Assembly: GCA_036867785.1 (NCBI GenBank)
Contig: CP145415.1
Span: 1,240,001 to 1,291,307 of the forward strand
Length of the DNA: 51,307 bases
Direction of reading: 5' to 3'
Source of the DNA: Plasmodiophora brassicae
Lineage: Eukaryota
The notes under the pieces were generated by a model. The model was given only the letters and a program-made list of their open reading frames with translations, searched no databases and had not been told where the DNA came from. The position numbers and the translations under genes are program-made. Of this stretch, positions 26,033 to 26,709 are shown piece after piece; positions within the stretch are counted from its first letter, which is position 1, and every line of letters starts with the position of its first letter.

Positions 26033-26709
26033 TGTGCCGGCTCCAAGCTATAAGACAAGAATAGCTGTGATCCGGCTAGGCCGCCCTAAGAATGACGGAC
26101 ATGCACGGAGTGCGCACGGAGTCCGCACGGCGTCCGTGGGAGCTGCAGGTCGGGGACACAGACGATTATACTACACGGCTGATATACCATCACCGTTGGG
26201 ACGTCACAGAGATCTCTTGAACATCCTTTCGGGGAAGGTTTCAAAGAAGGACGCGATGGTGGCCACCGCGCAGGAGATGCTGCTGGAAGATGACGTCGAT
26301 GATCGACAACAAGGACAGAGCGTGCAAGGCTCAACGATCGTCCTGCAGATGAACAAGGCGCCGACCTTGAAGAGCATGGACCGCAAGGCCGTCACGACGT
26401 TCATGGCCGAGCTGAAGACGTATCGGAATCACTTCCGGGACGATCCGAATGCCAAGGGCCAGATCCCACGGTCAGTGAGGAGTATGATCGACCCCGGTCT
26501 GCTCAGGGCGATCTGCAAGTGGGAACTCGGCACGGACCGTGGGATCTGGCCCTTGGCATTCGGATCGTCCCGGAAGTGATTCCGATACGTCTTCAGCTCG
26601 GCCATGAACGTCGTGACGGCCTTGCGGTCCATGCTCTTCAAGGTCGGCGCCTTGTTCATCTGCAGGACGATCGTTGAGCCTTGCACGCTCTGTCCTTGTT
26701 GTCGATCAT
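26033..26709 (+). mobile_element. Truncated LTR-retrotransposon-like insertion (candidate short LTR plus gag fragment) ending in a fold-back, inside the IGS
   Basis: 677 bp absent from the second IGS. Starts TGTGCCGG, with a candidate LTR end ACGTCACA at 26208. The ORF from ATG 26256 (APTLKSMDRKAVTTFMAELKTYR..PRSVRSMIDPGLLRAICKWELG) resembles protist Ty3/gypsy gag N-termini. No canonical TGG PBS is seen. Confidence 0.55.
26299..26709. repeat. Perfect long inverted repeat: 175-bp arms, 61-bp loop
   Basis: 26299-26473 is the exact reverse complement of 26535-26709. Confidence 0.97.

Follow-up and report, generated by a model that had tools for sequence, protein, structure and literature searches.

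At the edge of its ribosomal DNA (rDNA) array, the Plasmodiophora brassicae assembly analysed here carries a 677-bp insert (positions 26033-26709) that ends in an inverted 175-nt copy of its own sequence and thereby forms a perfect hairpin within the rDNA spacer. With somewhat better than even confidence, we trace this insert to an active LTR retrotransposon of the Ty3/gypsy order, of which it would be a young and now dead 5′ fragment, comprising the LTR, the leader and the first 94 gag codons, that arose through snap-back synthesis before its capture in the spacer. Any function would be hypothetical. The analysis covered a 51,307-nt stretch of DNA (the window, to whose first letter all positions refer), a chromosome segment in which ordinary genes come first and the rDNA array follows. 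Feature coordinates are collected in Table 1.

Table 1. Positions of the insert, its parts and the surrounding rDNA features in the window.
Feature	Positions	Strand	Evidence
Diverged partial spacer copy (subrepeats and promoter-like block)	24989-25872	+	80.4% identity to 39549-40430
17-nt motif, termed 'Pol I-like' in the first-pass annotation	25855-25871	+	also at 27308-27324 and 40413-40429
Left flank of five spacer subrepeats (30-33 nt each), the last closing with GGAG (26029-26032)	25873-26032	+	sequence and repeat search
Candidate LTR, 176 bp, TGTG...CACA	26033-26208	+	purine run upstream in parent; branch and depth in run X2
Leader between LTR and gag start	26209-26255	+	RNA contig 26172-26314 of run X20 and contigs of X1 and X2 span 26208/26209
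gag ORF 5′ fragment, 94 codons, ended by the turn	26256-26537	+	84% identity to P0001; 37% to P0014
Hairpin arm 1, sense gag	26299-26473	+	repeat search and exact extension
Loop, 61 nt, still parent gag sequence	26474-26534	+	parent contigs over the loop with 0 differences
Turn, GAC common to forward parent sequence and start of inverted copy	26535-26537	.	parent match to 26537; arm 2 from 26535
Hairpin arm 2, exact reverse complement of 26299-26473	26535-26709	-	repeat search and exact extension
Right flank, spacer subrepeats again	26710-27108	+	sequence, exact extension, spacer alignments
SSU rRNA	31315-33568		Rfam
5.8S rRNA	34174-34328		Rfam
LSU rRNA	34494-39103		Rfam

A repeat search returned inverted arms at 26299-26483 and 26525-26709 (185 nt, 98%), within which exact extension delimited perfect arms at 26299-26473 and 26535-26709 that match at 175/175 nt around a loop of 61 nt. 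The first-pass annotation, made from the sequence without database searches, had described this perfect 175-bp hairpin with a 61-bp loop, had assigned it to the proximal spacer alone and had noted that forward spacer subrepeats resume behind the inverted copy. Exact extension bore out the hairpin, coordinates included, and the subrepeats do resume, from 26710. Likewise, alignment with the second spacer (39100-40500), which has spacer subrepeats where the insert would be, confirmed for the two spacers of the window that only the proximal one is occupied. When folded as RNA, the segment 26250-26760 reached -456.7 kcal/mol vs -203.5 ± 6.8 kcal/mol in 100 shuffles (z = -37), and 0/100 shuffles folded as well; the inverted repeat is not due to chance. 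A blastn search of 26033-26534 against the window returned only the segment itself and the inverted arm, with no further copy.

The insert occupies a distinctive position with respect to the array. ORFs upstream of the array match the GatC, cactin, GCP (gamma-tubulin complex), SecE and Ufd2 families, and no transposon family match was found among them. A Ufd2 exon compared with 2,141 candidates among longer proteins had no match at E <= 1e-10. Spacer-like sequence extends from ~24989 onward, beginning with a diverged partial spacer copy that, as judged from alignment, is the mark of the rDNA array edge. Downstream of the insert, 26710-31314 is 96.9% identical to 39849-44422, and a second rDNA unit begins at 44423 (Rfam), with group I introns in each full unit. 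On this mapping, the 677-bp insert has the diverged spacer copy of the array edge on one side and the first regular unit on the other.

Several further features of the two spacers were recorded. The diverged copy, lying outside the first unit, resembles an array-edge relic spared homogenisation, and it has its own exact copy of the 17-nt motif. This motif has three exact matches in the window vs 0 expected from shuffles; a Pol I promoter role of the block that contains it is conjecture. The regular spacer carries, at 39217-40213, a long run of 33-nt subrepeats of the type …CAGTGTCTGCTAGGCACC…, and since these are missing from the proximal spacer, the two spacers appear to differ beyond the insert. 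A sigma-70/terminator scan of the window gave nothing of use, such signals being irrelevant to a eukaryote. In the literature, the available portion of the P. brassicae long-read genome paper (PMC6823432) does not treat the nuclear rDNA edge, and the accessible part of a 2026 P. brassicae pangenome preprint (10.64898/2026.10.14.759018) mentions neither rDNA or ribosomal sequence nor inverted repeats or RNAi.

Behind the leader, the insert opens into a gag-like reading frame. The full ORF (26256-26579) encodes 107 aa, the final 14 codons of which come from the inverted arm. A phmmer search with the ORF against 1.84 billion representatives yielded 13 matches at E <= 0.001, headed by P0001 (148 aa; an uncharacterised P. 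brassicae protein by its source name) with 84% identity and an E-value of 3e-42 over residues 1-92. P0001 starts at the ORF's own Met and extends beyond the point where the window ORF turns. Pfam families were found neither in the ORF nor in its relatives (0/13). Used alone, the 93-aa ORF retrieved no longer protein among 32 candidates; a profile search among longer proteins with ORF relatives led to one protein, P0014 (836 aa), with which the window ORF shares 37% identity at residues 72-155 (E 5e-13). Following this ORF-like N-terminal region, P0014 has a CX2CX4HX4C knuckle (read by eye, as zf-CCHC scored E 0.033, below the cutoff), a DSG protease motif and RVT_1 (E 1.1e-15). This gag-PR-RT architecture is that of a 37%-identical relative, the direct parent being known for 10 further codons only.

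Structure prediction pointed in the same direction with less force. An AlphaFold model from the ORF alignment (first sequence P0006) had a mean pLDDT of 61.7, with values above 90 at residues 111-190, a well-modelled stretch of which the window ORF (P0006 residues 101-168) takes in only the first part. Foldseek matched this model to no PDB entry at E <= 0.001. In a second structure search (48,161 chains), 11 of the top 17 rows were retroelement or retroviral capsid domains (Copia, PEG10, dArc1, Ty1 CA-CTD, MLV, CAEV), the best being the Copia capsid (Z 5.7, 88 residues aligned, rmsd 5.0); all of these lie at Z <= 5.7, under the caution level of Z 8, and Z values of such size can reflect a common helical arrangement. 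The gag identity, originally proposed from motifs, is hence upheld by homology and by the domain order in a relative, and weakly by the fold, with no curated family. Together, the sequence comparisons support derivation of the insert from a retroelement with a gag-like ORF. No confirmed relative loci were found in JGI metagenomes, be it with the ORF or with P0014, and none in viral contigs or prokaryote genome contigs.

The first-pass annotation had also presupposed a cognate element family, and public sequencing runs contain one. Of 24 public runs listed, 20, drawn from 13 studies, contain the insert stretch; soil metagenomes and five coded organisms are among them, and the highest share of sampled words in any run is 0.94. 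The parent family is widespread. Four runs (X1, X2, X12 and X20) were examined, all as contigs, which drop rare variants. In three of them (X1, X2, X12), contigs showed 0 differences from the window over 26179-26537 and then continued with letters unlike it. Translated in frame, these parent letters past 26537 keep the gag frame open and agree with P0001, and one X1 contig of 4,638 nt reaches ~4.3 kb past the turn. As exact contigs continue with an uninterrupted gag frame past 26537, the parent element exists, and it is near-identical to the insert; the LTR differs from the parent contigs by 1 letter in 180. X20, a soil metatranscriptome, has contigs over 26172-26314 and 26319-26469 at 95-99% identity, so a related copy occurs in an RNA library. 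Identity of the insert to parent contigs in several runs is direct evidence of very recent retrotransposition or cDNA capture.

The hairpin itself was seen in this assembly only, since none of the 21 contig pieces listed from the four runs, with 204 other pieces and 8 loose ends beyond this listing, crosses 26032/33, 26537/38 or 26709/10; as contigs drop rare variants, these pieces do not establish that the junctions are absent elsewhere. Sequence from the identical arms was placed on arm 1, and the missing depth over 26560-26689 in X1, X2 and X20, like that over the spacer flanks in X2, was given no weight.

The parent contigs also inform the boundaries of the candidate LTR. Its proposed termini, TGTG at 26033 and CACA at 26205-26208, are present in the sequence. 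Loose contig ends before 26029 reveal that in the parent a purine run lies directly before the 26033 TGTG (3/4 runs: X1, X2 and X12). This polypurine tract abutting TG supports the left end acting as an LTR start. The right end at 26208 has weaker support, which comes from a 31-nt contig in X2 that branches right after 26208 and from the contig depth over the LTR vs the interior (33 vs 14.1 in X2; 47.5 vs 34.4 in X1). One LTR copy lies within the window, and no TGG primer-binding site could be read in the sequence directly after 26208. Contig ends at 26152, 26179 and 26208 in X1 were considered as the LTR end and rejected, as they belong to a 26-nt variant bubble (two 86-nt contigs with 30-nt overlaps). 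X1 contigs contain a second LTR variant, with ~26 nt differing at 26153-26178 (depths 47.9 and 9.66), and X12 has single-letter variants at 26120 and 26124. These variants suggest that the family comprises LTR subtypes.

How the insert arose may be read from its three junctions. At the left, the GGAG that closes the flanking subrepeats (26029-26032) is also how the parent's polypurine run ends, which leaves this junction ambiguous: the common GGAG would also fit a microhomology-mediated template switch from a genomic copy. At the turn, the overlap with the parent contigs is 3 nt (GAC), or 6/7 with one mismatch. A short pairing is thus present at this point, as had been proposed, while the particular 8-mer put forward pairs at only 7/8 positions and the real overlap against the parent is the 3 nt. 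An inverted arm that starts at such a short microhomology supports fold-back priming, and the 3-nt GAC overlap, the 61-nt spacer and the parent's in-frame continuation past 26537 in 3/4 runs together form the features of a snap-back. The right junction (26709/26710) has 0 letters in common, and six nt of subrepeat phase (ACGCCG) were lost across the insert. Recurrence of the subrepeats makes the placement of both flanks on the regular spacer ambiguous. No target-site duplication was found at the flanks of the insert, which argues against canonical two-ended integration and not against a retroelement origin of the sequence. Two joints in X12 and X1, from 26021 or 26029 to 26710, were considered as empty sites and rejected as ordinary spacer subrepeat variants.

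From these junctions we infer the following order of events. Plus-strand synthesis would have started at the polypurine tract and proceeded into gag. The growing DNA 3′ end at 26537 would then have folded back on the 3-nt match (GAC) and used its own strand as template for another 172 nt, as far as 26299, before the copied end was joined without homology to spacer subrepeats at a spacer break. The source may have been a truncated cDNA or a faulty product of reverse transcription, which was either captured at the break or integrated through just one of its ends. Such uptake of an aberrant cDNA appears likeliest because the left end coincides exactly with the border between polypurine tract and LTR and few target bases were lost. 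In an element of several kb, a random chimera or template switch would rarely begin precisely at this border, and the left end thus indicates the end of a cDNA or one joined by integrase. A reverse transcriptase working on its own cDNA is an equally good candidate for the fold-back enzyme as host repair, and host-repair snap-back gives the same sequence. Once in place, the insert could have persisted because its array-edge site, between the relic and the first regular unit, would be beyond the reach of array homogenisation.

An alternative history, less likely than aberrant cDNA capture and in our estimate unlikely overall, starts from a complete element inserted in the spacer, in which a break or collapsed fork within gag was mended by snap-back synthesis and end joining while the rest was removed. 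rDNA spacers are prone to recombination, which would favour such a course, and the geometry of the turn fits equally well. Moreover, snap-back with short microhomology and inverted templated copies is a known repair outcome: in the available parts of two studies of snap-back microhomology-mediated end joining (MMEJ) and fold-back inversions, a 3′ end folds on a few complementary bases and primes synthesis, leaving an inverted templated copy with a short spacer (PMC2943611, PMC5728401). However, the right breakpoint re-enters the spacer only 6 nt off phase, between subrepeat types that are neighbours in the regular spacer, and this small loss of target speaks against full insertion followed by a ~5 kb deletion, which would need to stop almost exactly at the element's far end. 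Furthermore, neither a remnant of the 3′ LTR nor a target duplication is present.

It is more improbable still that the insert is absent from the genome and reflects an assembly or library artefact, in which a chimeric or fold-back long read fused the retrotransposon to spacer repeats. None of the three junctions was independently sighted among the listed contig pieces, the top share of sampled words in any run stayed at 0.94, and arms and parent are all identical, as polishing with reads from a multicopy parent could produce. Against this, an artefact would have to involve three independent joins, and one of these coincides exactly with the point where polypurine tract and LTR meet in a several-kb element, a place that a random chimera rarely hits. 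A fold-back from a missed adapter would invert everything upstream rather than 175 nt. In addition, ordinary long reads can anchor at the site, since non-array sequence is found ~1 kb away and the left flank resembles the regular spacer at only 80%.

A different question is whether the captured fragment acts. If the LTR promoter or upstream transcription reads through the insert, the RNA would form a 175-bp perfect stem suited to the 21-nt RNAi pathway reported for this organism. According to the accessible text of a small RNA (sRNA) study, P. brassicae has phased 21-nt small RNAs, two AGO proteins and a Drosha-like nuclease needed for sRNA biogenesis; transposable elements (TEs) are the second largest source of sRNA loci, and miRNAs arise from a palindromic region (PMC13547706, Figure 2G legend). 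The 'killer locus' envisaged in the first-pass annotation is plausible only because dsRNA is processed into phased 21-nt sRNAs in P. brassicae, as stated in the sections available (PMC13547706). In a working hairpin-siRNA locus, transcription from the LTR or the upstream spacer would give a stem-loop RNA, from which the Drosha-like nuclease and AGO would produce 21-nt siRNAs that act in trans to silence the parent family, in the manner of Mu killer on MuDR in maize. We consider this reading decidedly unlikely. The stem is perfect over 175 bp, the arms have 0 differences from the X1 and X2 parent contigs, so that siRNAs would match their target fully, and the LTR, 1 letter in 180 off the parent contigs, probably retains an intact promoter. 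The related copy in metatranscriptome X20 at 95-99% identity and the phased 21-nt sRNAs, TE-derived sRNA loci and palindromic miRNA region described in the consulted excerpts (PMC13547706) also count in its favour. Yet the parent family is still around, near-identical and apparently expressed in several runs, with no sign of silencing, and the hairpin may be private to one isolate. The sRNA study dropped rRNA-matching reads and is, in the portion available, silent on the rDNA spacer (PMC13547706). No transcript across the turn was found among the contig pieces listed from the four runs.

A fuller version of this proposal, which we hold to be a shade less probable again, would cast the rDNA-edge hairpin as a natural trans-silencer born of a snap-back reverse-transcription error: transcribed from an intact LTR and cut by the Dicer-less Drosha-like/AGO machinery into phased 21-nt siRNAs, it would damp the active gypsy-order family in carrier isolates. 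If true, it would be the retrotransposon counterpart of maize Mu killer, in Rhizaria. More generally, a transcribed hairpin would make it possible to ask if transposons are kept in check by the unusual RNAi pathway of this lineage, and a silent one would be an ordinary dead transposon fragment.

The closest precedent for such a structure is Mu killer (Muk) itself, described in the available portion of the maize literature as a locus that arose naturally when the 5′ portion of an autonomous transposon, terminal repeat included, was duplicated in inverted orientation; its RNA can form a hairpin that matches the active element (PMC3440606). The insert is likewise an inverted duplication from the 5′ part of an active element and potentially encodes a hairpin RNA. 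Muk, in contrast, derives from a DNA transposon, its ~4 kb hairpin is read from a flanking gene and silencing has been shown genetically, whereas the insert stems from an LTR retroelement, has a 175-bp stem, sits in an rDNA spacer and is known from sequence alone. In flies, mice and plants, endogenous hpRNA/esiRNA loci are long inverted repeats defined by mapped small RNAs. As a long, perfect genomic inverted repeat and a possible source of Dicer-type small RNAs, the insert resembles them, known here, again, through its letters only.

With regard to its origin, the favoured reading as a snap-back-made 5′ fragment can be set against known elements and repair products. TG...CA termini, a polypurine run before the LTR and a gag start ~50 nt past the LTR are shared with Ty3/gypsy-order (Metaviridae-like) elements, as is the order of gag, zinc knuckle, protease and RT in the relative P0014. 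Unlike such elements, the insert is only a 505-nt 5′ piece with a short 176-bp LTR and without a canonical primer-binding site; integrase and RNase H were found in no relative fetched, P0014 stopping within RT. Templated copies described for snap-back MMEJ are mostly tens of bases long, compared with 172-175 nt for the copy seen here. The rDNA-specific elements R1, R2 and Pokey are site-specific in the 28S gene and occupy many units; the insert is also mobile-element DNA in rDNA, but a single, non-specific fragment in the spacer of the edge unit. Gypsy is the largest TE class in the P. brassicae repeat tables, with 983 elements in the part of that source available (PMC13547706, Table S5).

Very recent retrotransposition or cDNA capture would matter in a crop pathogen that is probably largely clonal. 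At the rDNA array edge, a fixed landmark, the three junctions may serve as markers of individual isolates. With the parent sequence known, the insert would further document, with unusual clarity, a natural case of snap-back synthesis on retroelement DNA.

The rDNA units of the window allowed two additional observations. In both SSU copies (31819-32099 and 44927-45207), exact sites for two P. brassicae SSU primers from the literature lie at a distance of 281 bp, in line with this host. The primers were taken from a Figure 3 legend, and in the available part of that paper the product measures 657 bp with intron 1 and isolates with 383-442 bp deletions are on record (PMC5297718). The rDNA of the window therefore seems to be of the intron-1-less type. 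Finally, a group I intron (Rfam) lies at 33615-33931 and 46726-47042, after the end of the SSU match and before the 5.8S rRNA, and the true SSU 3′ end is probably located past this intron, which would make the Rfam SSU coordinates too short.
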